From an uncultured delta proteobacterium (GTDB lineage Bacteria > Desulfobacterota > Binatia > Binatales > Binataceae), in NCBI GenBank assembly GCA_963808235.1, contig CAWEEQ010000004.1:1024001-1088000 (forward strand): 64,000 bases of DNA. The letters run 5' to 3'. The notes beneath the pieces were generated by a model, which saw nothing but the letters and a program-made list of their open reading frames with translations, had not been told where the DNA came from and did no database searches. Positions 1-12,587 of the stretch are shown here, in pieces. Both the position numbers and the translations under genes were made by a program. Each line of letters starts with the position of its first letter. Position 1 is the stretch's first letter.

Positions 1-243
1 GCCTACACATTCGACTCCAACGGAAACGTTCAACTTCCTCACGGAAACGTATTCGCGGTGATCGTCACCGGACCCGGCGGAGCACTGCTTGTCGAAGGTA
101 CCGACTTCACCGTGGACCGAGCCGACGGAATTATCGTGGCAAGAGACGGCAATGCGCTCTTACCGGGCGAAACAGTCCAGATCGCGTACGCATACGCCGA
201 CCAGGCAATAGCAACTACGAATCAAAGTGCGCCGACTAACTAG
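1..243 (+). CDS. 3' end of upstream phage tail-associated protein (5'-truncated by window; possibly tail terminator/Gp37-like)
   Basis: Frame 1 is open from base 1 (AYTFDSNGNVQLPHGNVFAVIVTG...) to TAG at 241-243. It lies directly upstream of the sheath, and its C-terminal domain resembles a domain inside the sheath. Confidence 0.7.
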   Translation, partial: AYTFDSNGNVQLPHGNVFAVIVTGPGGALLVEGTDFTVDRADGIIVARDGNALLPGETVQIAYAYADQAIATTNQSAPTN

Positions 244-275
244 TTCATACGACTCAACTGAGTAATAGGTGATAC

Positions 276-1817
276 ATGCCAGCCAGTTTCTTGCACGGGA
301 TTGAAGTAATCGAAGTACCGAATGGATCGGTCGCAGTAAGCGTCGTGAAGTCAGCGGTGATTGGGCTGGTGGGGAGCGCTCCTTCGTGGGCGGTCACCGC
401 ACCTGCGGTCGCGGTGGCGCCCAATACGCCGACGCTGGTTTCCTCGGCGCTCGATGCGGCGAACTTCGGACCAATTATCCGCGGCTACACGATTCCCTAC
501 GCGCTCGCCGCGATTCAGGCGCAGGGCAGTGGACAGGCCATCGTGGTGAATGTGTTCGACGCGACTCGGCATTTCACTGCGATTGCAGCGACCGCATTCA
601 CCTTCAATGCGAATGGAGCAATCAACCTCGGCCACATGGGAGTATCGAGTGTAGTAGTAACCAGCAACCCGGCGGGCACTACCTACATCGCCGGGACTGA
701 CTATACGCTCGATGCAATCAACGGCGTGATCAGTATAGTGCCGACTGGATCGGGCGGTCACATCACAGCCGGCGCCAGCGTTCTGATTGCGTTCAACTAT
801 GCGGACCCGTCGAAGGTGTCGGACGCCGACGTCGTCGGCGCGGTGACCGGCGGGGTGTTCACCGGCATCCAGGCGTTTCTGACGACTTTCGGAACGATGG
901 GATTCTTTCCGAAGCTACTGATCGCTCCGGGCTACGCGCAGGACGCATCGGTGGCCACGGCGCTGGGAGCGGCGGCGGACAAGATTCGAGCGATGGCGCT
1001 GGTCGACTCGCCGCCGTCGACCTCGGCGGCGGCGGCGATCGCAAACCGCGCGGTGGTGGGCAATGGGTTCGCTTCCACCGACAGCCGCGTCATTCTGTGT
1101 TACCCGCAGGAAACTTTCTTCGACACCGGAATAGTCCCAACCGGTGTGACGCTCAGCACTTCGGGAACTCCGGTAACGACGCAGCTCAACGCAAACGCGG
1201 TGGCGCCTTACTCGCAGTGGGTAGCCGGCGCGATCGCCGCGCGCGATCTCGCCAATGGCTATTGGTGGTCGCCGTCGAACATGCAAGTAAACGGCATCCT
1301 CGGTCCGGACGTTCAGCTCTACGCCTCGATACTGGATCCGTCGTCGGACGTGAACAACCTGAACGCGGCCGGAATCGTAACGGTGTTCAACGCCTTCGGC
1401 AGCGGGCTCCGGGTGTGGGGAAACCGGAGCGCGGCGTATCCGCTGTCGACCACGCCGGCCAATTTCATTTCGGTGCGGCGCACGATGGACGTGATCGAAG
1501 AGTCGGTGGAACTTGCGATGTTGCAGTTCATCGATCAGCCGATCTCGAACGCGCTGATCGACACGATCCTGGCGAGTGCGAATGCATTCATCAGATCGCT
1601 AATCCAGCGCGGGGCGCTGGTGGATGGATCGGCCAGCTTCAACCCGGCCGAGAATCCAAGCGCGCAAATTGCGGCCGGCCAGTTGGTCTTCGATATCGAC
1701 GTGATGCCGCCGCCACCCACGGAAAGGATTACCTTCCAGGCGTTCATCGATGTGAGCCTGCTCGCGGAACTCGGACAGACCAGTCCTATAACCGCCGCGG
1801 CAGGAGCGACCGCCTAG
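276..1817 (+). CDS. Contractile phage tail sheath protein (P2 FI-like)
   Basis: N-terminal FLHGIEVIEV, AVIGLVG, LLIAPG, GYWWSPSN, GLRVWGNRS and FISVRRT motifs; C-terminal PPPPTERITF; SD-like AGGTGA upstream. Confidence 0.95.
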   Translation: MPASFLHGIEVIEVPNGSVAVSVVKSAVIGLVGSAPSWAVTAPAVAVAPNTPTLVSSALDAANFGPIIRGYTIPYALAAIQAQGSGQAIVVNVFDATRHFTAIAATAFTFNANGAINLGHMGVSSVVVTSNPAGTTYIAGTDYTLDAINGVISIVPTGSGGHITAGASVLIAFNYADPSKVSDADVVGAVTGGVFTGIQAFLTTFGTMGFFPKLLIAPGYAQDASVATALGAAADKIRAMALVDSPPSTSAAAAIANRAVVGNGFASTDSRVILCYPQETFFDTGIVPTGVTLSTSGTPVTTQLNANAVAPYSQWVAGAIAARDLANGYWWSPSNMQVNGILGPDVQLYASILDPSSDVNNLNAAGIVTVFNAFGSGLRVWGNRSAAYPLSTTPANFISVRRTMDVIEESVELAMLQFIDQPISNALIDTILASANAFIRSLIQRGALVDGSASFNPAENPSAQIAAGQLVFDIDVMPPPPTERITFQAFIDVSLLAELGQTSPITAAAGATA

Positions 1818-1842
1818 TCGGCCCGGACGCCAGAGGAAAAGA

Positions 1843-2361
1843 ATGAATATCCAGATCAACTCACTGACTAATGCAAATATCTACATCGACGGTGTCGGGC
1901 TGCTGGGGCGAGCCGAAGAAATTGAAATACCGCATCCCAAGCACAAGATGATCGACTACAAGGGACTGGGCATGGCGGGCACCGCTGAGCTGTGGGCGGG
2001 AGTCGAAAAGCTCGAGTCGCGAATCAAGTGGTCGTCGTTCGACGCGGACACGCTTTCGATGTCGACGAGCCCATTCACCACGCATAACTTTCAGGCCCGC
2101 GGAAGTCTGGAGCAATACACAAGCCAGGGGCGCAGTTCCCAACTTCCGGTCGTTTACCTAATGACGGGAGTATTCAAGGACGCGGGGAGCCCCAGCTTCC
2201 GGCAGCATCACATGGTCGAAACGACGTCGCGCGTAAGTGTGTATCACTGCGAACTATACGTCGCTGGGGTGCAAATTTATTTGTACGACGTGTTCGCAAA
2301 TATCTACGTCGTGGGAGGTGTCGATCAACTGAGTAATTTCCGATCGAATATCGGCGGATGA
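1843..2361 (+). CDS. Phage major tail tube protein (P2 FII-like)
   Basis: 172 aa directly after the sheath; LTNANIYIDG..LLGRAEEIEIP, GMAG, GVEKLE and terminal VGGVDQL..R..IGG. Confidence 0.93.
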   Translation: MNIQINSLTNANIYIDGVGLLGRAEEIEIPHPKHKMIDYKGLGMAGTAELWAGVEKLESRIKWSSFDADTLSMSTSPFTTHNFQARGSLEQYTSQGRSSQLPVVYLMTGVFKDAGSPSFRQHHMVETTSRVSVYHCELYVAGVQIYLYDVFANIYVVGGVDQLSNFRSNIGG

Positions 2362-2401
2362 CCGTGCCTGGCCGCGAAATCGCGGCATGGAGCGATGCGC
2401 T

Positions 2402-2767
2402 ATGAAGACCGACGAAGTTACGGTGAACGGAGTGCGAATCGGCGGCGCGGAGGCTCTGGAAGAGCGAGAGACGAAGACGATCGAGCTGCCGTCGGGAGCG
2501 CGGGCAGAAGTTCGCACGGGTGTGGGGCGCGACTTGATGCGAGCGCAACGGGCAGTGGCCGGCGGAGACGCGAGTGCGGTGGTATTCGCGCTGATCGCGG
2601 AACTCGCGCGGATCGATGGTCGCAAGATCGTCTACGAAGACGTGCTGGAGATGGAACTTGGCGATGTGATGGCGTTGCAGGCGGAGGTGATCGGCGAAAA
2701 TTTCGAGCGCCCTCCGCAGCGAGCTTCGCAGGCCTCGTCCAATCCGGATTCTCAGCCGGAGAGCTAG
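2402..2767 (+). CDS. Phage tail assembly chaperone (GpE/Gp41-like)
   Basis: Follows the tube gene; IELPSG, GRDLMRAQR and EDVLEMELGD fit the TAC family. Start may instead be 2387. Confidence 0.8.
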   Translation: MKTDEVTVNGVRIGGAEALEERETKTIELPSGARAEVRTGVGRDLMRAQRAVAGGDASAVVFALIAELARIDGRKIVYEDVLEMELGDVMALQAEVIGENFERPPQRASQASSNPDSQPES

Positions 2768-2862
2768 CCGAGATGGATTTTGCGGAGCTGTCGTACTGGC
2801 TCGATGCGGTCGCGGAATATGAACGGATGCGCATCGAACGCGGCGGAGGGAACGATAGGTGA
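2698..2862 (+). CDS. GpE'/GT extension of tail chaperone reached by -1 frameshift
   Basis: The -1 frame reads KFRAPSAASFAGLVQSGFSAGELAEMDFAELSYWLDAV (GpE-like G.s..el..M...El..W). It begins at slippery heptamer A_AAT_TTC (2698-2704). Confidence 0.75.
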   Translation, partial: KFRAPSAASFAGLVQSGFSAGELAEMDFAELSYWLDAVAEYERMRIERGGGNDR

Positions 2863-2926
2863 GTAGTAATTCGATTGACTATTGCGAAATGCGTGAACCA
2901 ATGAGTCACGCGAACACGGTGAAGCG

Positions 2927-3211
2927 ATGGGTGTGAGACTATTCGTAGGTAATTTGAGTTTTTCGCTGGGCGACAACGATCTGCGCGCGGCATTCGCGGA
3001 CGTGGGTAGTGTGGAACGCGCCGAGATTGTGCGCGATCGCTACGACGGGCGCTCGCGCGGTTTTGGATTCGTCGAGATGCGCAACGAAGACGACGCGGCG
3101 GTGGCTTTGCGTTCGATGAACGGAAAGGAACTCGCGGGACGATTGCTACGCGTTGAAGCGGCAACCTCGCAGCGCCGGCCCTTCGAGCGCAATACGGCGC
3201 GGCCTGGTTAG
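2927..3211 (+). CDS. RNA recognition motif (RRM) RNA-binding protein
   Basis: RNP2 LFVGNL and RNP1 RGFGFVEM, plus NGKELAGRLLRVEAA; 94 aa. Confidence 0.95.
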   Translation: MGVRLFVGNLSFSLGDNDLRAAFADVGSVERAEIVRDRYDGRSRGFGFVEMRNEDDAAVALRSMNGKELAGRLLRVEAATSQRRPFERNTARPG

Positions 3212-3243
3212 CGCCGAGCGAAGTCGCGGTATCGAGATGGATT

Positions 3244-4278
3244 ATGAAAAAGACGGAGCGATCCAAGGCGGACATCATGAAGCGCGGCCCTGGTGAATCG
3301 GCGTTGGCGGGAGGGCACGACGCACTTAGCCAGGTGGCCGGCTTCGTACGCGCAAGTATCGAGGTCGCTCGGGCGACCGATCGGCTGGCAAAGATCGCGC
3401 GACAGCAAATTCCCCTTGCCGCGTACGGACTGGTTACGAGAACCGCGACGCCCGCCGAGATGGAGTCGATGCGAGGTGGCTCTCAGAGCCATCTGGAAGA
3501 TCCGGCGTGGCCAAGTGAAGGTGGGAGCGCGTTTCAAGCTGCGGATGCGATGGTGGCGCTTCAGAGGTTTGCATCGAACCTCAAGGCACTCGACGCGGCA
3601 CGAGTCGGAGAGGGCAGGCGCTTTCTGCGCGGATCGGAAAGCTTAAGCGTGAGAGCGACCGGCGAGATGTCGGAGATCGGCGGGCCGGAAATGGATTCTA
3701 CAGTCGATGCTCGCGGCAGATTTTTCCGGGCCGTTCAGCAGTCGGCCTCTCGCATACAAGCGCTGAGGGGGATCGGAAGCAGAGAACGTCTGGAGGGTCC
3801 GGATGGCAAGCGAAGTTCGAACGTCACGCTCTCATGGGGTGACCTTGCGGGGCGGGCAGATCGCGCGCTTGGCCTTGTCGGCCGACTCTCAACGGAAGGC
3901 GAAGAATCATCACGCGGGCCTGGTCCGCGCTTCGAGCGGAGTCGTGCCTCGTTCAATGTCGACCGAATACTAACTTCGACTGAAAAGTATATGTCGGGGT
4001 CGAGAGGGCGCGGATGGAACGGGGCGAGAGGCACGATAGTTGCGCCGGCGAGTCTTTCGCGGCCGGAATTTGCGGAGCCCATGCGCGGCGTATATGGGCA
4101 GGAGTCGAGGAGCACGCCTGGGGCGATAACGATCAACTCGACTCCGACAGTGGTTATCAATGCGGGCGAGCCCGGCGATGTTGAGCGTCAAGTAGCCGGC
4201 GCGCTGAGACTGCATCGCGAGGAATTGTTCGATCAATTGAAACGAGAGTCGGTGCGGCGCGAACGCGCGCAGTTTTAA
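3244..4278 (+). CDS. Atypical short tape-measure-like protein
   Basis: Occupies the tape-measure position before gpU. The C-terminus ITINSTPTVVINAG...LRLHREELFDQLKRESVRRERAQF resembles P2/Mu tape-measure C-termini; the rest is low-complexity and R/G/S-rich. Confidence 0.6.
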   Translation: MKKTERSKADIMKRGPGESALAGGHDALSQVAGFVRASIEVARATDRLAKIARQQIPLAAYGLVTRTATPAEMESMRGGSQSHLEDPAWPSEGGSAFQAADAMVALQRFASNLKALDAARVGEGRRFLRGSESLSVRATGEMSEIGGPEMDSTVDARGRFFRAVQQSASRIQALRGIGSRERLEGPDGKRSSNVTLSWGDLAGRADRALGLVGRLSTEGEESSRGPGPRFERSRASFNVDRILTSTEKYMSGSRGRGWNGARGTIVAPASLSRPEFAEPMRGVYGQESRSTPGAITINSTPTVVINAGEPGDVERQVAGALRLHREELFDQLKRESVRRERAQF

Positions 4279-4294
4279 GTGAGAGGCAGCACCA

Positions 4295-4873
4295 TTGTTC
4301 GCAACGTTGGGTGAAATTCCGTTCGAAGTAGTCGGCTCGCCTGAGGGCTACGAATCGAGCCGGGCATACGATTTCGCCGAGCATCGAGTGGTCGAGAGCA
4401 AGCCGCGGCTGCAATGGGTAGGCAACGATCTCGAGCGCCTGAAATTTGAATTGCGGCTGCATTCATCGTTCACCGACCCGGCCGCGAAGCTGGCGCTGCT
4501 GCGCGCGACGGCGGCGGCGCATCTCGCGTTGCCGCTGGTTTTTGGCGACGGCGGTTTTCGAGGGTTTTTCGTAATCGAATCCATATCAATGAGATCGCAG
4601 CAACTTTCGGCACACGGTGCTCCGATCGCGATTACAGCCGCGCTCGCGCTCAAGGAATGGGCGGTGGAATCCGAGTTGTTCGCAGGGTCATCGCCGATCC
4701 CGGATTTTGTGCCGCTGGGAATCATGCCGGCGGCGAGTTCGAGCGGCGGCTCGGCGCCGATCCCGGGGATATCGGCATTACTTAGTGTATCTCCTGCGAC
4801 GGGCACGACTGGACCGAACCTCGAGGCAAACGACGTACCAGTCTCGGTGATAGTAAGGAGCGCCGCACCATGA
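4295..4873 (+). CDS. Phage tail protein GpU-like
   Basis: MFATLGEIPF, FAEHRVVESKPRLQWVG, LPLVFGDG.F.GFFVI and LKEW; TTG start; Pro/Ser/Gly-rich C-terminal extension. Confidence 0.9.
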   Translation: MFATLGEIPFEVVGSPEGYESSRAYDFAEHRVVESKPRLQWVGNDLERLKFELRLHSSFTDPAAKLALLRATAAAHLALPLVFGDGGFRGFFVIESISMRSQQLSAHGAPIAITAALALKEWAVESELFAGSSPIPDFVPLGIMPAASSSGGSAPIPGISALLSVSPATGTTGPNLEANDVPVSVIVRSAAP

Positions 4874-5112
4874 CGCAGGGGACGCAATACATACTTCATA
4901 TCACCAAAGCGGGTGAGCGGTGGGATTTGCTTGCGTGGCGATACTACGGCGATCCGACTGACTATAGCCCGATCATAATGGCTAATCCGGATGTTGCGAT
5001 CGAACCGGTATTTGACGCGGGAATAGCTATCGCGGTGCCTATCGTCCAGAAGAGCACGGTGGTGAGCGCAGATTTACCGCCGTGGAAAATGCCGCGGCCG
5101 GTGGGCGTGTAG
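4870..5112 (+). CDS. Phage tail protein X (LysM-like, GpX)
   Basis: HITKAGERWDLLAWRYYGD...ANP...LPPWK; ATGA overlap with gpU. Confidence 0.92.
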   Translation: MTQGTQYILHITKAGERWDLLAWRYYGDPTDYSPIIMANPDVAIEPVFDAGIAIAVPIVQKSTVVSADLPPWKMPRPVGV

Positions 5113-6126
5113 ATGGCTGCCGCAGTATTGCATTCCGTTCGCGCGCCGCAGTGGGTGCTTACCTACGAGGGTGTGAACATCACTACGGATATATCGCACA
5201 TGGTACTTGCGATTAGCTATGTGGACCGGCTTGGTGAGGCGTCGGGCGAGTTTGAGGTAGAGCTGGAAGATCACGCGAAAAAGTGGCAAGGGCCATGGTA
5301 TCCGGGACTGGGAAACATACTCAGTCTGCAGATTGGCTACTCCGGCGAAGCACTACTGGATTGCGGGTCCTTCCAGGTCGACGAACTGGAGTTCGACGGG
5401 CCACCGGATGTGATGCGACTCAGATGCCTGAGCGCGTACATCACACCAGCGATGCGCACGCCAAATACGATGGCCTACGAGGGTCAGAGCATCGTGGATA
5501 TCGCCGGGCAAATCGCGTCCAAGTATGGACTCAGCCTGGTGACGGCGCCCTCGGCCATCGAGAGCGACGTAGTGTTTGCGCGCGTAACCCAACGCCGCGA
5601 AACGGATCTCGGATTTCTGAAGCGCCTTGCAATCGAGCACGGTTTTGACTTCACGGTGCGCGGCGCGCAGATGGTCTTTTACGCGCGGACGGCTCTGGAA
5701 GCGGTAATCCCGCTGGTCGTGATCACACGGCCGGACACGACAGGGTTCTCGTTTCGCAACCGGACGCGGCGAATTTACAGCGGCGCGGAAGTGGCTTACT
5801 TCGATCCTGACACCAAGCAGTTGATCACTCAGACCGTGACAGCGATTCCGCTGGTCCCGACGACGGACACGCTCAAGATCGTAACGCGTTCGGAAAACGC
5901 ACAGCAGGCCCTGGTGAAGGCCCAAGCGGCGCTTCATCTGCACAACATGGTGTTCGTCGATGCGTCGATCGAGGGTCCGGGGAACGTGATGCTGGTGGCG
6001 GGAAACCAAGTGGAGATATCCGGATGGGGCGCGCTTGACGGAGCGTATCTGATTGAAACGGCGCGGCATCGGGTCGCGCGTGCGAGCGGATACACGACTG
6101 CGATCGAGGCGCGCCGGGTTGATTAA
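5113..6126 (+). CDS. Phage late control D / baseplate hub protein (GpD-like)
   Basis: ISYVDR, LQIGYSG, GSFQVDELEFDGPPD, TQRRETDLGFLKRLA and G.YLIETARH. Confidence 0.92.
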   Translation: MAAAVLHSVRAPQWVLTYEGVNITTDISHMVLAISYVDRLGEASGEFEVELEDHAKKWQGPWYPGLGNILSLQIGYSGEALLDCGSFQVDELEFDGPPDVMRLRCLSAYITPAMRTPNTMAYEGQSIVDIAGQIASKYGLSLVTAPSAIESDVVFARVTQRRETDLGFLKRLAIEHGFDFTVRGAQMVFYARTALEAVIPLVVITRPDTTGFSFRNRTRRIYSGAEVAYFDPDTKQLITQTVTAIPLVPTTDTLKIVTRSENAQQALVKAQAALHLHNMVFVDASIEGPGNVMLVAGNQVEISGWGALDGAYLIETARHRVARASGYTTAIEARRVD

Positions 6127-6271
6127 AGTGTCGCAGCGCAAAAGAAAGACCGCTACGCGCGGGGCGGCAGGGGTGACCCCTGCACCCAGTGTCCATTCCA
6201 TTCAATCGCAAAATCCCGCGGACGGTATTTTGCTCCGGTCTGATGGCGAAGATAGGTGAAGGGAACGAATC

Positions 6272-6964
6272 ATGAATCAGCTCATTGAATATCGCGAAAG
6301 ATTTTTCGCGCAGAATCCGGCGTTTCGGGTTGGGATCGTGCAGCAGCAGGATGCCGCGCACGCGAAGGTCCGCGTGGTGTTTCCGGATTACGACGAAGTG
6401 ATCAGTTGGTGGCTGCCGGTGGTTTTCGCGAAGACGCAGAACGACAAAGCTTACTGGATTCCGGACGTCGGAGAGCAAGTCGTTTGTCTGATGGATTTGC
6501 GGGACGAAGCAGGCGCGGTGCTGGGCGCGATTTATTCAGACGCGGACTTGACGCCGGTGAACAGCGCCGACAAGTTTCATCTCGGGTTCCAGGATGGCAC
6601 CAGCATCGACTACGATCGCGCGGCACACGTTCTCGATCTCCTTTTCCAGGACACCACGGAACTCAAGTACGACGCTCATGTCCATCTGCTCGATCTGAAG
6701 TTTCAGGACCAGGGCGAGATCAAATACGACGGCACCGAGCACATTCTGACCGTGAGCCTTCCGCAGGGTGCGGCGTTCAACGTTACCGCGAACGGTGCGC
6801 AGATGCAGATCGATTCTAACGGCGACGTCATCATCAGGGCTGCCGGACAGGTGAGGCTTGGAACCGGTCAACTGGCAGGAGTCGCGCGGTTGGGCGACAC
6901 GGTTCAGGTTGGCAATCAGACGGGAACGATCGTGACGGCGAGCGCCGACGTGTTGGCAGGGTAA
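6272..6964 (+). CDS. Baseplate assembly protein V (spike)
   Basis: OB-fold KVRVVFPD..ISWWLPV, YWIPDVGEQVVCL and GAVLGAIYS; three 19-aa repeats; PAAR-like C-terminus. Confidence 0.92.
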   Translation: MNQLIEYRERFFAQNPAFRVGIVQQQDAAHAKVRVVFPDYDEVISWWLPVVFAKTQNDKAYWIPDVGEQVVCLMDLRDEAGAVLGAIYSDADLTPVNSADKFHLGFQDGTSIDYDRAAHVLDLLFQDTTELKYDAHVHLLDLKFQDQGEIKYDGTEHILTVSLPQGAAFNVTANGAQMQIDSNGDVIIRAAGQVRLGTGQLAGVARLGDTVQVGNQTGTIVTASADVLAG

Positions 6965-6967
6965 GCG

Positions 6968-7384
6968 ATGCCGGCAGGAGCAATAACGCTCGCGGACATC
7001 ACGTCGGCGGACTGGTCGCTGGAGCTCGGCACGATTGGCGGGGTGGTACAGGGGATTGCGGACGTCGAGCAGTGTCTGGGGATCATCGTGACGACGCCGC
7101 GCGGTAGCGATCCACTTCGGCCGACGTTTGGCTCGGACATCTGGCGATATATCGATTTTCCGATCGACGAAGCGCTGCCGGCGATCGTGCGTGAGCTGAC
7201 CTCGGCAATCACCACGTGGGAGCCGCGGGTGAATCTGATTTCGGTAACGGCGCAACCGGTGAACGATGGGAGCACGCAGTCGGGGGCGCATCTTGATGTG
7301 ACGCTCACGTGGCAACTGAAGCTCGGCGGCGCACCATCGCCAGCGCAAATCACGATCGTGACAATCCCGGGAGCGGCGGCCTGA
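6968..7384 (+). CDS. Baseplate wedge GpW/gp25 family
   Basis: IIVTTPRGSDPLRPTFGS and AITTWEPRV. Confidence 0.93.
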   Translation: MPAGAITLADITSADWSLELGTIGGVVQGIADVEQCLGIIVTTPRGSDPLRPTFGSDIWRYIDFPIDEALPAIVRELTSAITTWEPRVNLISVTAQPVNDGSTQSGAHLDVTLTWQLKLGGAPSPAQITIVTIPGAAA

Positions 7385-7421
7385 CGCTGGGCCGCGCCGA
7401 TGGCGATGAAAGGATGAGTTG

Positions 7422-8591
7422 ATGGGCGCAGGAATTCCGTCGCTGCCACCGCCGATATTCGTGAACGATGCCGACGGCCTGGATCCGAACAAGATCCTGG
7501 CCGACATGATCGCCGAGTTCGAGGCGGCATCGGGGCGCACGCTTGCGCCGGCGCAAGTCGAGCGCCTGCTGATCAATCTCTATGCTTATCGCGAGTCGCT
7601 GGTGCGAAACGCGATTCAGTATGCGGGGGAGCAGAATCTGCTGGCGTTCGCGTCGTTTCCGATGCTTGACTATCTCGGTCAACTGCTCGGCGTGAGCCGG
7701 CTCGCGTCGCAGCCCGCGTCGACTACGATCCAATTCACACTGACGAACGCGCTCTCGGTGCCGTTTACGATTGCGGCGGGAACCCTGGTTGGGACCAACG
7801 ATGGGAACTTTGCATTTGCGACGGGCGCCGCAATCACGATCGCGGCGGGCGCGACGACCGCGAGTGTCGCAGCCCTGGCGACCGCTCCAGGAGCCGCCGC
7901 GAACGGCTACTTGGCCGGACAGGTGAGCGTACAGCTGAATCCGAGCGCGCTAATCGCGAGCGCTAGCAATACGACGACGACTGCAGGTGGATCGGCTCCT
8001 GAGACCGACGATCATCTGCGGACACGAATCCAGGCGGCGCCCAATCAATTCAGCGTCGCAGGACCGGTCGGCGCGTACCGGTTTTTCGCGATCGGCGCCG
8101 ATCCGTCGATCATCGACGCGCAGATCATGAGTCCGGCGCCGGGAATAGTGAACGCATACGTGCTGACCGGACCGATCAGTGTGCAGCCCGCGGCGGCGCC
8201 GAACAGCGCCGGGGTAGCGAGCGGATTGCTGCTCGCAAAAGTTGCGGCGGCGCTGAACGCAGACATCGTGCGGCCGCTTACCGACACGGTGAACGCGCTC
8301 GCGGTGACTGAAATCGACTACCAGATAAGCGCGACGGTAACACTTTATGCCGACGCCGATCCGACCGCGACGATAGCGGCGGCGAGTGCGGCGGCGCAGG
8401 AGCTCGCGCTCGAGCTGGCGGCGAAGATACAGCGCGACATCGTGCCGAGCCAGGTTATCGCGGCGCTTTCGGTAGCGGGGGTGTACGGTGTGACGCTCTC
8501 GTCGCCGGCGCTGACGACGCTCGGCGTGGGGCAGTGGGCGAACTGTACTGCGATTACGCTGACGACCGCGTTCAGCACGGAGCATAGCTGA
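7422..8591 (+). CDS. Baseplate J/gp47 family protein
   Basis: GRTLAPAQVERLLI, QNLLAFA, GG...ETDDHLRTRI, FSVAGP..AYRF and VRPLTDTV. Confidence 0.93.
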   Translation: MGAGIPSLPPPIFVNDADGLDPNKILADMIAEFEAASGRTLAPAQVERLLINLYAYRESLVRNAIQYAGEQNLLAFASFPMLDYLGQLLGVSRLASQPASTTIQFTLTNALSVPFTIAAGTLVGTNDGNFAFATGAAITIAAGATTASVAALATAPGAAANGYLAGQVSVQLNPSALIASASNTTTTAGGSAPETDDHLRTRIQAAPNQFSVAGPVGAYRFFAIGADPSIIDAQIMSPAPGIVNAYVLTGPISVQPAAAPNSAGVASGLLLAKVAAALNADIVRPLTDTVNALAVTEIDYQISATVTLYADADPTATIAAASAAAQELALELAAKIQRDIVPSQVIAALSVAGVYGVTLSSPALTTLGVGQWANCTAITLTTAFSTEHS

Positions 8592-8592
8592 T

Positions 8593-9456
8593 ATGCCTGA
8601 GCTTTCCGCGGCGCCCTCGATAAACGATACGCGCACGCAGGCGTTGCTGGAATTGATCGCGCGGCTGGCTGCGCTCGATCTGACGCAGATCCTGGTTTAT
8701 CGGATCGACTCGGTGCCGGAGGGCGCATTGCCATTTCTCGCGTGGCAGTTCGACATCCTGTCGCCGCTGTGGCAGTTGGTTGCGCCGGTGTCGCTTGGAG
8801 TCGATGCGCTTTCCGATATCGATCTGTTGATCGACATCGACAACCTGATCGAGACCGGCGGAATTGTGTCGGGCGAGAGTCTTACCGAGGCGGCGCAGCG
8901 CGTAATGCTCAAGAGCGCCGTGCCGTTGCATCGCTTCCGCGGAACCCCGTTTGCGGTGAAGCAGGCGCTAGCGTCGCTCGGATGGACGCAGGTCAATCTG
9001 CTTGAAGGGCAATCGAGATGGGGCGGAGCGAGCTATCCTTCGAGCCAGGGTTGGGCGGTTTTTCGGGTGATGATCGACTTGGTGGACGGGCAGAGCGTGG
9101 CGAGCGGGGTGGTATCGACGGCGGCCGCGGCGGTGAATTTTTTCAAGCCTGCGCGCGCATGGCTGGATTCGATTTGGTTTGTGACGCCGCCGGTGTCTGA
9201 TGTGGGGCCGACGCCCTCAGACGAATTCACGCTTGGAGGAATCGTTCAATACCAGATCGACGCGGCTCGAGTACCTGGCGACGGCGGACTGGCTATAGCC
9301 ATTGTGTCCGCGGCAATTGTGGATGCGTACGGTCCGATCATGCCCATTTACGATAGTCACTATCGGCATAGCGGAATCACCTATGGCGTCAACGAGCCCG
9401 AAGTGGCGGATTGCGCCCTGTTGATGAACGGCGCGGCCGTCTTGGACGGAGGTTAA
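8593..9456 (+). CDS. Phage tail protein I (GpI-like)
   Basis: LVYRIDSV..ALPFLAWQF, LHRFRGTPFAVKQAL, WAVFRV and FFKPARAWL. Confidence 0.88.
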   Translation: MPELSAAPSINDTRTQALLELIARLAALDLTQILVYRIDSVPEGALPFLAWQFDILSPLWQLVAPVSLGVDALSDIDLLIDIDNLIETGGIVSGESLTEAAQRVMLKSAVPLHRFRGTPFAVKQALASLGWTQVNLLEGQSRWGGASYPSSQGWAVFRVMIDLVDGQSVASGVVSTAAAAVNFFKPARAWLDSIWFVTPPVSDVGPTPSDEFTLGGIVQYQIDAARVPGDGGLAIAIVSAAIVDAYGPIMPIYDSHYRHSGITYGVNEPEVADCALLMNGAAVLDGG

Positions 9457-9457
9457 G

Positions 9458-9922
9458 ATGAAAAGTCCGGCGGGAATTGTGCGGATCCGACTGCTGAAGC
9501 GAGGTCGCGTCGCGTGGACCTACGAGGGGCGCAATCTTTTCGTGAATGCGGGAAGACCGGCGCTCGCGGCGCTCCTCGGAGGCGATACCGCCGGCGAATT
9601 TGCGGCGGCAGTCGGGTTCGGATCGGGCTCGTTGGCTCCCACAGTGAACGACACGGCGCTGACGGCGCCCGGATACTACAAGGCGCTCGACAGCCACAGC
9701 GAAGACGGCAGTGGGAGCGTGACGTTCAACTGGTCCCTGACCGGGGCTGACACGGGAGCGCTGGGAATAACAATTCAGGAATTGGCGCTGTTCGCGAATC
9801 ACGCGAGCGCGGGCTTGCCGGGTACAACCGCGCCGACTCCGATGCTCGCGCGCAAGACGATCGCGCCGATAGTCTTCGGGACGGGAATGAGTATCAGCGG
9901 CACGTGGACCCTTACTTTCTGA
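9458..9922 (+). CDS. Tail-fibre baseplate-anchor-like protein
   Basis: NLFVNAG..ALA.LLGG, GFGSG..APT..DTAL, IQELALF and LARKT...GTWTLTF resemble fibre N-terminal anchor domains encoded as a stand-alone gene. Confidence 0.65.
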   Translation: MKSPAGIVRIRLLKRGRVAWTYEGRNLFVNAGRPALAALLGGDTAGEFAAAVGFGSGSLAPTVNDTALTAPGYYKALDSHSEDGSGSVTFNWSLTGADTGALGITIQELALFANHASAGLPGTTAPTPMLARKTIAPIVFGTGMSISGTWTLTF

Positions 9923-9930
9923 GGTAGTCA

Positions 9931-10494
9931 ATGGCTACACTAATCGACGCAGCGGAGTTTACCTCGAATGAGGTTTACCAAATTCAAGCGACCGACCCGG
10001 TCGAGGGCGCGGCGAGTGGCGCGACCTTCAACGGCACCGGCATTTCCAACCAGCCGCATCAGCAACTTGCAAATCGAACCGCGTTCCTGAAGCAGCGCCA
10101 GGATGTGAACATCGGGAATATCGGCGTCCTGCAGGCATTCATGGGCGCGTTCGCGGGTTCGATCTCGGGAAATGGATATCTGACAATTCCGATCGCGGAT
10201 GTGAATCGCGGATCGATCGTTGCGATTTTGGAGTGGGGCGCGATGTTTCCGGGTGGGGGTCTGGATGACGATACGAACTACGCGGTGACCTGGCCGACGG
10301 CATTTCCCAACGCGTGCATCTGGGCGATGGCGACGCTCGCGAATCCGCGTGGGAGAGCGCATATCGCAAAGTTGGTAATAGATGTCGTCAGTTACACCAG
10401 GACGATAGGTACGTTTCGATCGGCCTTCATCGCCGGCTCGGACAGCACCCAGGCTCCGAACGACGGCTTTTACTGGATGGCGATCGGATTCTGA
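9931..10494 (+). CDS. Short tail fibre protein (gp53-like C-terminal domain)
   Basis: VYQI..TDPVEG..SN.PHQQLANRTAFLK fibre N-terminal motif; NGYL.IP..LEWG..WPTAFPNAC...YWMAIGF tip domain. Confidence 0.75.
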   Translation: MATLIDAAEFTSNEVYQIQATDPVEGAASGATFNGTGISNQPHQQLANRTAFLKQRQDVNIGNIGVLQAFMGAFAGSISGNGYLTIPIADVNRGSIVAILEWGAMFPGGGLDDDTNYAVTWPTAFPNACIWAMATLANPRGRAHIAKLVIDVVSYTRTIGTFRSAFIAGSDSTQAPNDGFYWMAIGF

Positions 10495-10501
10495 ACGCGA
10501 G

Positions 10502-11944
10502 TCAGGCGAGAGCGGCGATGATTCGTTCCATCGCGATTCCGCGGGAGCCTTTGACCAGCAGGACGTCGCCGGCGCGGACCAATCCGGCGACGAGATCGGC
10601 GGCGGCGGCGGAATCGGGCGCGACGAGAACATCAGAGGGAAGGCTCGAGCCCGCGACCGTCGCGAGCCCGGCGCTCATTTCGGGGCCGACGGCGACGAAC
10701 GCGGCGGGCCGTTCGCGCATGATGTCGCGGATGGCGTCATGGTGCGCGGCCGCACTCATCGCACCCAACTCGAGCATATCGCCCATCGCAATCACGAGGC
10801 GCGCGCCGAGGCCATGCGCGACCTCGCGCGCCGCGCTGAGTGCAACGCGAATCGAGCGCGGGTTCGAGTTATAGGTGTCGTCGATCACGATAACGCCGCC
10901 AATGGTGGAGCTCGACAAGCGCCCGGCGACTGGCTTTGCACTGGCGAGCGCAGCGGCGATTGCGGCTAATTCGGGAGCGTTGAAAGGCTTGGGGCGTATC
11001 GCGGCGAGAGCTGCAATCGCGGCGGCACAATTAAGCGCGGCAGTTTCACCCAGGAGAGCGATTTCGGTTTCGACAAACGGTTCGACGCCGGTGGAGACGA
11101 ACGAGCGGGCAATTTCGATTTTGATCTGCGATCGAGCGCCTACGATCCTGCCACGAAGCCGCACGGTCGCATCGGGCGATTTGCCAAACGTGATTAGCTT
11201 CAGATGTTTCGGTATGCGTGCGAGGACGAGCGGTTCTTCGGCTGAGGCGACCGCATAACGTCTGGCGGTTGAGAACAGCGCCGCTTCCTCATCGGCGATC
11301 TCGTCGAGAGTGCCGAGGCCCTCGCTATGTTCGAGATCGACGTTGAGGACAATCGCGGCGTCCGGCTCCACGATGCGTGCGAGCTTTGGAATTTCTCCGC
11401 GGGTGTTGGTGCCGCATTCGAGCACGACGGCGTTGTGCCGGTCGGTGAGCGTGAAGATCGTCATCGGCACGCCGATGAGATTGTTGAAATTAGCGGTGGT
11501 CGATAAAGCGGTTCCGAAGAGCGCGCGAGTGATGGCGGCAGTCAGCTCCTTGGTCGTGGTTTTGCCGGCGGCGCCTCCGATTGCGAGCACCGGGAGCGGA
11601 CGTTTGGCGCGAATCCTCGCGAGATGGCTATGCGCGAGATTGCCGAGCGCGGCGAGCGTGTCGGCAACCTCGATGCAGGCTAGTGCGGAAGTTTGTCTTC
11701 CGGTCTCGACGACTGCGGCCCTCGCGCCGCGCTCGCGGGCTTGCGCGAGATAGTCGTGGCCGTCGGATCCGACGCCGCGAAGCGCGACGAACAGATTGCC
11801 CGGCACGAGCGAGCGAGTATCGATGCTGACGCCTTTGATCGCGCCGTCGCCAATCTCGGTCGAAGAGTGGAGCCGGCCGCCGCACGCCTCGACCACTTCG
11901 GCGAGAGTGAACTCACATTGATTGCTGGGAATCGGCGTCGTCAT
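10502..11944 (-). CDS. murF: UDP-N-acetylmuramoyl-tripeptide--D-Ala-D-Ala ligase
   Basis: SIDTRSL..GNLFVALRG..DGHDY, GKTTTKE, NFNNLIGVP, IDDTYNSNP, GDMLELG and LVKGSRG. Confidence 0.96.
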   Translation of the reverse strand: MTTPIPSNQCEFTLAEVVEACGGRLHSSTEIGDGAIKGVSIDTRSLVPGNLFVALRGVGSDGHDYLAQARERGARAAVVETGRQTSALACIEVADTLAALGNLAHSHLARIRAKRPLPVLAIGGAAGKTTTKELTAAITRALFGTALSTTANFNNLIGVPMTIFTLTDRHNAVVLECGTNTRGEIPKLARIVEPDAAIVLNVDLEHSEGLGTLDEIADEEAALFSTARRYAVASAEEPLVLARIPKHLKLITFGKSPDATVRLRGRIVGARSQIKIEIARSFVSTGVEPFVETEIALLGETAALNCAAAIAALAAIRPKPFNAPELAAIAAALASAKPVAGRLSSSTIGGVIVIDDTYNSNPRSIRVALSAAREVAHGLGARLVIAMGDMLELGAMSAAAHHDAIRDIMRERPAAFVAVGPEMSAGLATVAGSSLPSDVLVAPDSAAAADLVAGLVRAGDVLLVKGSRGIAMERIIAALA

Positions 11945-12098
11945 TTTAGATAAACTGCCGGGTCCATTGTGCCGAATTATCGCCAGCGGTTATACCGCCA
12001 CGTTCTTGACATGACGCCGAGAGCGAATCAGCCTTCAGATTCGACTTTTCGACGGGCATTCGATGAAGAGGCGAACAGCTTCGGGGAGGCAGGAATCG

Positions 12099-12587
12099 AT
12101 GGCAGAGGCGCCGATGGTTGGCGTGATAATGGGCAGCAAGAGCGACTGGGAGTACATGTCGGCGGCGGCCGAAGTCATGGAAGAACTTAAAGTGCCGCAT
12201 GAAGTTCGGATTTTATCGGCGCATCGTACTCCTGACGAGACGCTCGAATATTCCGCGGGAGCAGCGGGGCGCGGTCTGCGGGTGATAATCGCGGGCGCGG
12301 GCGGCGCGGCGCATCTGGCGGGAGTGGTCGCGGCAAAGACGATCCTTCCGGTGATCGGGGTGCCGATGCCGACCACGTCGCTCAATGGAATCGATTCGCT
12401 GCTGTCGATCGTGCAGATGCCCAAGGGAGTGCCGGTGGCGACGATGGCGATTGGAAAGCCGGGCGCGGCGAATGCGGGTCTGTACGCGGTGCAAATTATC
12501 GCGCTTGGCGACGCCAAGCTCGGCGCGAGGCTCAGGAAATGGCGATTGGCGCGGGCGCAGGAATTGTTGCAGCAGAAAATTCCCTAG
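12099..12587 (+). CDS. purE: N5-CAIR mutase
   Basis: VGVIMGSKSD, SAHRTP, IAGAGGAAHLAG and SIVQMPKGVPVAT. Confidence 0.97.
   Translation: MAEAPMVGVIMGSKSDWEYMSAAAEVMEELKVPHEVRILSAHRTPDETLEYSAGAAGRGLRVIIAGAGGAAHLAGVVAAKTILPVIGVPMPTTSLNGIDSLLSIVQMPKGVPVATMAIGKPGAANAGLYAVQIIALGDAKLGARLRKWRLARAQELLQQKIP

Follow-up and report, generated by a model that had tools for sequence, protein, structure and literature searches.

We found that the contractile-tail operon at positions 1-10494 of the window analysed here, a stretch of 64,000 nucleotides (G000:C4:1024001-1088000) from a 93% complete genome (G000) of the genus Ca. Binatus in the family Binataceae, is the right half of a phage-derived element of ~38.6 kb (G000:C4:995868-1034494). 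Most probably the host owns it as a particle maker; neither a tailocin without heads nor a prophage of recent origin fits it well. With moderate confidence, and judging from gene content and sequence comparison, we read it as an immobile derivative of a Mu/BcepMu-type phage that was acquired by an ancestor of the Binataceae, a family of soil bacteria, has been kept vertically under purifying selection and would produce particles like those of gene transfer agents (GTAs) or of PBSX. All genomes compared in this work are metagenome-assembled genomes (MAGs) of uncultured bacteria.

An earlier sequence-only reading of the window had proposed a headless, tailocin-like machine. This proposal is contradicted by the DNA upstream of the tail genes, which carries Mu-type capsid, protease, portal and terminase genes, a lysin, a Mor-family activator and an S24 repressor (Table 1). 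The Gp27, portal, gpI, gpT and Gp36 families of the Mu-type head and packaging set all scored above their Pfam cut-offs, and the repressor and Mor are the only regulators seen in the element. To the left of the repressor lie host-type genes (a glutathione S-transferase and a carboxyltransferase). At the right end, the fibre stop at 10494 and the convergent murF stop at 10502-10504 are separated by 7 bp, as the earlier reading had stated, and murF passes its NCBIfam cut-off. No tRNA was found at either end of the element. The description of the tail module itself also held: it is of the P2/Mu type, its 15 open reading frames (ORFs) all lie on the + strand without internal stops, and 12 of them exceed the curated Pfam cut-offs, the exceptions being the chaperone, the 344-aa ORF and the 154-aa ORF. 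Likewise, its base composition resembles that of the flanks (GC 0.58-0.645 within the tail region, 0.58-0.64 outside). The absence of a lysin on the right side was correctly noted, but the lysin, the head genes and the repressor sit on the left, outside the window.

The capsid gene (gpT) was found in 46/46 genomes of the genus, 121/165 genomes of the family, 22/30 genera and 77/96 high-quality genomes, and the portal gene in 41/46, 116/165, 21/30 and 71/96, respectively. The RpoB core piece, used as a control for gaps in the MAGs, was recovered in 37/46, 142/165, 30/30 and 91/96. Among species genomes sampled from the genus, 24/24 have the sheath gene. Seven unpublished genomes (G018, G023, G117, G173 and G178-G180) are counted in these figures, and the capsid count without them is 114/158; none of the seven enters a tree or a dN/dS result. 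Most capsid matches (107/121) are full-length and stop-free. Beyond the family, the sheath was not found in 15 genomes of other families, bar one weak match, and a class-wide draw detected the capsid in 32/36 Binataceae and in 1/214 genomes of 19 other families (38% identity). Isolated phages are distant: the closest, BcepMu by its sheath and Ralstonia phage RS138 by its capsid, show ~42% identity, and no phage in the collection reached 45%.

For six Ca. Binatus genomes, we compared gene order in the 60 kb that surround the sheath gene (41 kb in G004, where the contig ends). Four of these genomes (G017, G008, G015 and G012) have in common the left host flank, the element genes in order, the odd cargo genes and murF at the right. 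Synteny is partial in G004, whose contig ends inside the element, and in G006, whose left arm lies outside the 60 kb. Across the wider set, the order from protease to fibre is kept in 80 related loci, murF follows the element in a further 12 genomes from 3 genera, and the left arm (repressor, lysin, lipoprotein, TerS, TerL and portal) is conserved in eight further genera. The sequence-only reading had singled out conservation of the gene order as worth checking. In g29, g31, g33, g43 and g46 the order is compact, with the portal abutting protease and capsid (1.4-2.4 kb), whereas the portal-protease junction of other genera holds 4-23 kb of lineage-specific cargo. The cargo of G000 is partly common to the genus and absent from the compact-order genera. 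The two halves of the element can also be separated: in G006 they lie 1.25 Mb apart, both intact, the left half beside the left flank known from G000 and the right half beside murF, and they are likewise apart in G075, G134 and G174.

We assessed co-divergence of element and host by relating protein distances for capsid, sheath and J to those for the RpoB core in 22 chosen genomes from 15 genera. These were taken from 26 genomes with the full RpoB piece, four of which (G017, G069, G155 and G134) were dropped for a J coverage below 0.85; G008 lacks the full RpoB piece. The Mantel correlation was r=0.81 over 231 pairs, and 0 of 9999 permutations reached so high a value. Quick maximum-likelihood trees of the element and of RpoB have their main clades in common (g29+g31 with g43+g33; g30+g26; the Binatus core with G016). 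Selection was estimated across eight Binatus species by the Nei-Gojobori method (NG86), with dS partly saturated and the ratios accordingly rough. On this scale, dN/dS lies at 0.04-0.2 in 16 of 17 scored element genes, the exception being the fibre (Table 1), and RpoB scores 0.059. Values of dS are 0.5-1.1 for the element genes, 0.58 for murF and 0.39 for RpoB. Tree congruence, the Mantel correlation and purifying selection together uphold the earlier inference that the module has been vertically kept.

With regard to mobility, no match to the rve transposase domain was found in the whole of G000, in a narrow test (one Pfam family, one genome-wide scan), and each of its five tyrosine recombinases is over 900 kb distant from the element. 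A BcepMu-type early arm (transposase, MuB, GemA and others) was not seen in the element, a negative that rests on searches for rve and for tyrosine recombinases, with none made for MuB separately. We observed a second, non-syntenic Mu-like copy in G168 (G168:C22:7835-25123; capsid 71% and portal 61% identical to G000); an ORF of 756 aa that contains an rve domain lies ~10 kb away. This copy is a candidate active transposable phage of the Binataceae. Since the rve ORF beside this copy indicates that transposable relatives exist in the family, the missing transposase of the conserved element is meaningful.

Among known systems, the element resembles BcepMu and other Mu-like myoviruses in its late gene order (lysis, TerS (Gp27), TerL, portal, protease, capsid, Gp36, Gp37, sheath, tube, frameshifting chaperone, tape measure, U, X, D, V, W, J, I and fibre) and in Pfam families that are Mu-specific. 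Unlike BcepMu, it carries an extra RNA recognition motif (RRM) gene and a short tape measure and fibre. Unlike Mu-like phages in general, it occupies a fixed chromosomal locus and in many lineages carries the 4-23 kb of cargo between portal and protease; two hallmarks of such phages, an rve transposase and MuF after the portal, were both not found in G000, nor was MuG. The passage of PMC8987985 that defines GTAs describes them as domesticated, defective phage gene sets that are vertically inherited under purifying selection. The element likewise combines head, tail and lysis genes without mobility genes, as judged from rve and tyrosine recombinases only, with vertical inheritance and purifying selection, and in some Binataceae genomes its cluster is spread over separate loci, as in GTAs of the RcGTA type and others. 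It differs from them in its independent ancestry (a contractile-tailed Mu-like myovirus), its phylum (Binatota) and its phage-type repressor and activator. GTA particles also carry more or less random host DNA, have a reduced head capacity and cannot transfer the full set of their own genes, traits that are at most predictions for the element.

The comparison extends to other contractile particles. PBSX of Bacillus subtilis is a chromosomally fixed, inducible defective prophage with a head and a contractile tail; the element is likewise fixed in the chromosome with head and contractile-tail genes, but differs in gene families, host phylum and repressor type. R-type tailocins (pyocin R2 type) have a P2-type sheath, tube and baseplate without capsid or packaging genes. 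The element has such P2-type genes and a LexA-like S24 repressor nearby but, in contrast to tailocins, also conserved adjacent capsid, portal and terminase genes. With extracellular contractile injection systems (eCIS; Afp/PVC) it has in common the core of contractile sheath, tube and baseplate, and it is set apart by its head genes; the eCIS markers AAA ATPase and DUF4255, which the sequence-only reading had not seen, are indeed not among the Pfam matches of the 15 tail ORFs.

To our knowledge, few independent domestications of a whole phage particle are known (the RcGTA, BaGTA, VSH-1, Dd1, VTA and PBSX types), all from cultured organisms. What would be new here, on our reading of these genomes, is that a transposable myovirus was domesticated as a whole particle, independently of the known cases, in a candidate phylum for which only metagenomes are available. 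If true, this would add a further whole-particle domestication, from a Mu-like phage and outside cultured organisms. More than 100 species show stages of this history, namely a compact ancestral order, accretion of cargo between portal and protease, separation of the halves at two loci and, in places, loss of tail genes or of the tape measure alone, and they form a natural data set on how a transposable phage becomes a host organ. Full-text literature searches, with supplements outside their reach, returned nothing that describes a phage-derived element for Binatia, Binatota or Binatus; the retrieved portion of PMC12142844 concerns other bacteria, and that of PMC13626063 does not mention Binatia.

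These data suggest the following course of events. DNA damage (SOS) would lead to self-cleavage of the LexA-like S24 repressor, and Mor would then switch on the late genes. Heads would assemble on short contractile tails, which at ~0.15 nm per tape-measure residue would measure ~50 nm. Because the element would neither transpose nor excise, the terminase would fill the heads from the chromosome in situ, so that the particles carry host DNA. The GH108 lysin would release the particles, and the variable, fast-changing fibre might pick kin cells for delivery. The element would thereby behave as a gene transfer agent or lateral transducer. Since capsid, portal and terminase are strongly conserved, a role for filled heads is favoured. 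A fuller version of this scheme, which we offer only tentatively, is a family-wide GTA of independent origin from a Mu-like myovirus, with a lost transposase, headful in situ packaging that begins at the element, locus-biased lateral transduction (of murF and other neighbouring host genes), the RRM protein in its control and one clade that makes or uses its contractile tail with no tape measure. If the element makes such particles, Binataceae chromosomal DNA is expected in the particle fractions of soil viromes.

Several observations weigh against an immobile, vertically kept particle maker. The element is known from its genes alone, in MAGs throughout. No capsid match was obtained in 44/165 family genomes, among them all those of 8 genera (including g18, 0/5, and g32, 0/6), so the element is dispensable, and 14/121 capsid matches are partial, split or contain stops. 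In the trees, G009 is discordant with weak support, and in five genomes (G068, G118, G127, G155 and G156) capsid identity is 55-66%, far below the expectation from RpoB. The rough dN/dS ratios and the narrow search for a transposase, described above, limit the case in the same direction. The kept repressor and Mor activator amount, as far as their families tell, to phage-like and not host-integrated control. MuF (PF04233) and MuG were not found in G000, and TerS is split in the genus of the window: it is encoded by two ORFs in G000 and appears as two high-scoring segment pairs in different frames in several genomes of the genus, compared with a single 275-aa gene in G099. Because of these gaps, head function could be impaired. 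In G017, a 100% complete genome, ~5.4 kb are deleted from mid-tube to mid-J; the genes for the chaperone, the RRM protein, the tape measure and U, X, D, V and W are gone, and the head genes are intact. Finally, in four genomes from four lineages (G174, G069, G075 and G009; loci L121, L132, L119 and L117) the RRM gene is followed by gpU with no ORF in the place where the tape measure gene is expected.

The alternative that we take most seriously, while considering it unlikely, is a PBSX-like killer particle. Here the same element would serve to kill competitors with its contractile tail, and heads filled with host DNA would be an undelivered by-product. The fibre is the fastest-evolving gene, with allele classes among close species, as expected for antagonistic targeting; control by an SOS-type S24 repressor resembles that of bacteriocin-like elements; and MuF, which in BcepMu carries the annotation of a DNA pilot and is a minor head protein, was not found. 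However, capsid, portal and terminase are conserved as tightly as the tail genes or more so, which is unexpected for by-product heads, and a killer would hardly be expected to lose its tail genes and keep its head genes, as G017 did, or to do without a tape measure, as one clade does. A machine in which the tail module alone is functional and kept, in the manner of R-type tailocins, is extremely improbable: the module is complete, stop-free and vertically kept, as such a machine would require, but the head and packaging set directly upstream is co-oriented and co-conserved with it and under equal or stronger purifying selection.

Two further readings concern the state of the element as a phage. 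That it is an ordinary temperate or transposable prophage, still mobile and re-entering the same site, appears very improbable, even though repressor, Mor, lysis, head and tail genes together look prophage-like and contigs with 69-84% TerL identity are classed as viral in IMG/VR. No transposase or integrase was found in the searches for rve and tyrosine recombinases, there is no tRNA at the ends and different species have the same flanking sequence; the tree of the element agrees with that of its hosts, with dS like that of neighbouring host genes; and mobility also fits poorly with lineage-specific cargo and with halves that lie apart in several genomes. The sequence-only reading had held that a head module upstream, with integration genes and patchy presence among relatives, would mark a recent prophage. 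The head module is there, but an integrase or transposase was not found, and the capsid is present throughout the genus. An ordinary integrated prophage was accordingly rejected on the lack of a nearby recombinase and on the capsid count, flanking repeats and target duplications not having been searched for. Quite improbable, too, is a slowly decaying, functionless remnant conserved through a low mutation rate or hitch-hiking. Losses in 8/30 genera, the G017 deletion and the broken copies in some genomes fit such decay, but it is at odds with low dN/dS in all scored genes but the fibre at the dS reached here. Neutral decay would moreover leave stops, so the predominance of stop-free capsids across a family whose RpoB core has diverged to 77-81% speaks against it.

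The RRM gene is an unusual component of the tail operon. The sequence-only reading had placed it in front of the tape measure, and it proved to be a true RRM and a long-standing part of the module. The protein contains the RNP2 (LFVGNL) and RNP1 (RGFGFVEM) motifs, matches the NCBIfam model Rbp_regulator at 88 bits, below the cut-off, and has no PHROG family match. Its slot between chaperone and tape measure is covered by 72 loci, and a search with the G000 protein detected the gene there in 54 of them. It is missing from the slot in g26, g40, g38 and some others, and so was lost several times. Outside the element, G000 carries four further RRM genes. The element RRMs of 20 genomes group together to the exclusion of these four host paralogues (SH-aLRT 92), with branching that follows the element tree, which points to a single, ancient capture from a host-type paralogue family. 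The 64-nt spacer before the gene (2863-2926) contains the blocks TGACTAT, TAATCA and ACGGTGAG, which do not vary among 14 genomes of the genus; the spacer on the 3' side of the gene lacks such conservation. A search of the upstream spacer for a conserved RNA fold was negative (RNAalifold -0.99 kcal/mol, 0 covarying pairs, 14 sequences). Speculatively, the RRM protein might be a post-transcriptional regulator co-expressed with the tail genes. A conserved RRM inside a tail operon is unusual, and a full-text search found no literature that links an RRM to a phage tail operon.

The putative tape measure protein is short, at 344 aa compared with 846 aa in BcepMu, as had been noticed from the sequence. 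It is not aberrant, however, as 327-419 aa is the normal length for the element family (8 genomes, 7 genera). It matches no Pfam, PHROG or NCBIfam family. An alignment of eight homologues shows conservation over the C-terminal ~60 aa and variation over the N-terminal ~270 aa. A low-confidence AlphaFold model from this eight-sequence alignment (pLDDT 48) is mostly made up of long helices, of which the C-terminal helix 313-343 is confident. The state without a tape measure gene occurs in 11/80 loci, whose other head and tail genes have dN/dS of 0.09-0.32 and one stop only. With the G161 protein as query, no tape measure homologue was found elsewhere in the four genomes G174, G069, G075 and G009. 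In G009, the chaperone gene is relocated to between the capsid gene and Gp37. In G069, an insert between the V spike and the W wedge (L132:7861-9781) holds three ORFs (122, 340 and 214 aa) with signal-peptide-like N-termini, and on account of these ORFs it was rejected as a relocated tape measure.

The fibre is as minimal as first described, with 187 aa compared with 785 aa in BcepMu, and consists of an N-terminal anchor (1-58) joined directly to a Gp53-like C-terminal tip. Within the genus, its identity falls into classes of 52-58, 70-77 and 86-96%, compared with 80-91% for neighbouring genes, a pattern that hints at exchange of alleles or at target recognition under diversifying selection. 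In G006, ~4 kb absent from G000 lie between fibre and murF (L019:6136-10153), with an 894-aa ORF, co-oriented with the tail genes and possibly spurious, and a 452-aa ORF, neither with a Pfam family. Several other genomes of the genus have 4-6 kb at this position.

Table 1. Genes and features of the element from left to right, with the flanking murF gene; positions without a contig name refer to the window, and dN/dS was estimated across eight Binatus species.
Feature	Position	Strand	Evidence and remarks	dN/dS
Helix-turn-helix (HTH) + S24 (LexA-like) repressor	left end	opposite, divergent	Pfam Peptidase_S24 + HTH_3	
Mor-family activator	left of lysin		Pfam Mor	
Lysin	left of lipoprotein gene		Pfam Glyco_hydro_108 (GH108)/PG_binding_3	
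Lipoprotein gene	left of TerS			
Mu Gp27-type small terminase (TerS)	G000:C4:1001125-1002062 (L003:17125-18062)		Pfam Phage_Mu_Gp27; two ORFs, 104 + 208 aa, 4-nt overlap	
Tandem repeat	G000:C4:1002088-1002836 (L003:18088-18836)		between TerS and TerL; 283-bp unit x 2.7, 98% matches	
Terminase large subunit (TerL), 513 aa	left of portal		PHROG match	
Mu portal	left of cargo		Pfam Portal_Mu, E 3.7e-105	
Cargo, ~13.5 kb	G000:C4:1006487-1019744 (L002:2487-15744)		between portal and protease; not phage-looking	
Mu gpI protease	left of 160-aa protein		Pfam Mu-like_Pro	0.17
Head structural protein, 160 aa	left of capsid gene		phrog_1731	0.11
Mu gpT major capsid gene	upstream	co-oriented	Pfam Mu-like_gpT, E 1.7e-92	0.055
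45-aa ORF	between capsid gene and Gp36 adaptor			
Mu Gp36 head-tail adaptor	directly upstream of Gp37	co-oriented	Pfam Phage_Mu_Gp36	
Gp37-family gene, 3' end (tail terminator-like)	1..243	+	full ORF G000:C4:1023422-1024243; Pfam Gp37, E 1.3e-31 on full ORF	0.15
Tail sheath, 513 aa	276..1817	+	Pfam Phage_sheath_1 + Phage_sheath_1C	0.096
Tail tube, 172 aa	1843..2361	+	Pfam Phage_tube, E 5.6e-41	0.038
Tail assembly chaperone, 126 aa (2387-2767) plus -1 frameshift extension	2387..2862	+	phrog_21320, E 4e-24; Pfam tail assembly chaperone families below cut-off	0.20
RRM-type RNA-binding protein, 94 aa	2927..3211	+	Pfam RRM_1, E 1.3e-21	0.051
Putative tape measure protein, 344 aa	3244..4278	+	position between chaperone and gpU	
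gpU-like tail protein	4295..4873	+	Pfam Phage_P2_GpU, E 1.9e-26	0.20
gpX-like tail protein, 80 aa	4870..5112	+	Pfam Phage_tail_X, E 7.5e-13	0.11
gpD-like baseplate hub protein	5113..6126	+	Pfam Phage_GPD, 30.3 bits vs cut-off 30.1	0.12
gpV-like spike	6272..6964	+	Pfam Phage_base_V	0.16
gpW/gp25 baseplate wedge	6968..7384	+	Pfam GPW_gp25, E 3.2e-13	0.10
gpJ baseplate wedge	7419..8591	+	Pfam Baseplate_J, E 3.8e-47	0.11
gpI-like baseplate or fibre-attachment protein	8593..9456	+	Pfam Tail_P2_I; phrog_5726 + phrog_48 (both tail)	0.19
Conserved 154-aa protein	9458..9922	+	no Pfam family; phrog_5417 (unknown function), E 9e-20	0.109
Short tail fibre, 187 aa	9931..10494	+	Pfam Gp53-like_C; tail-fibre PHROGs at both ends	0.40
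murF, host gene, right boundary marker	10502..11944	-	NCBIfam TIGR01143 murF, 297.8 bits vs cut-off 288.6	0.168

Among the remaining genes of the tail operon, the sheath is 42.5% identical to BcepMu gp39, and the 154-aa protein is 81-88% identical inside the genus. The chaperone gene contains a canonical -1 slippery heptamer, AAATTTC, at 2698-2704; the shifted frame is open to 2862, and the overlapping -1 frame ORF spans 2395-2862. No Rfam family was found in window positions 1-12200, and predicted promoters and terminators were not in excess of those in shuffled sequence.

In the left half, the cargo of G000 encodes a methyltransferase, a 164-aa ORF, a 317-aa ORF, a Flp-pilin-like ORF and others, together with a 983-aa NHL-repeat/choice-of-anchor D protein and a 1261-aa DUF7948 protein. 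The unit of the 283-bp tandem repeat is a duplicate of the TerS 3' end plus a palindromic sequence resembling a miniature inverted-repeat transposable element (MITE), and three small G000-specific ORFs are due to this repeat. Lastly, we observed that the C-terminal ~75 aa of Gp37 (window 1-243) resemble an inserted domain of the sheath (residues ~101-179, window 576-812) at 32-44% identity. This likeness is seen in G000 and most sampled genomes of the genus, and the same sheath stretch matches the NCBIfam model 'tail_tube_6XGR' below its cut-off.

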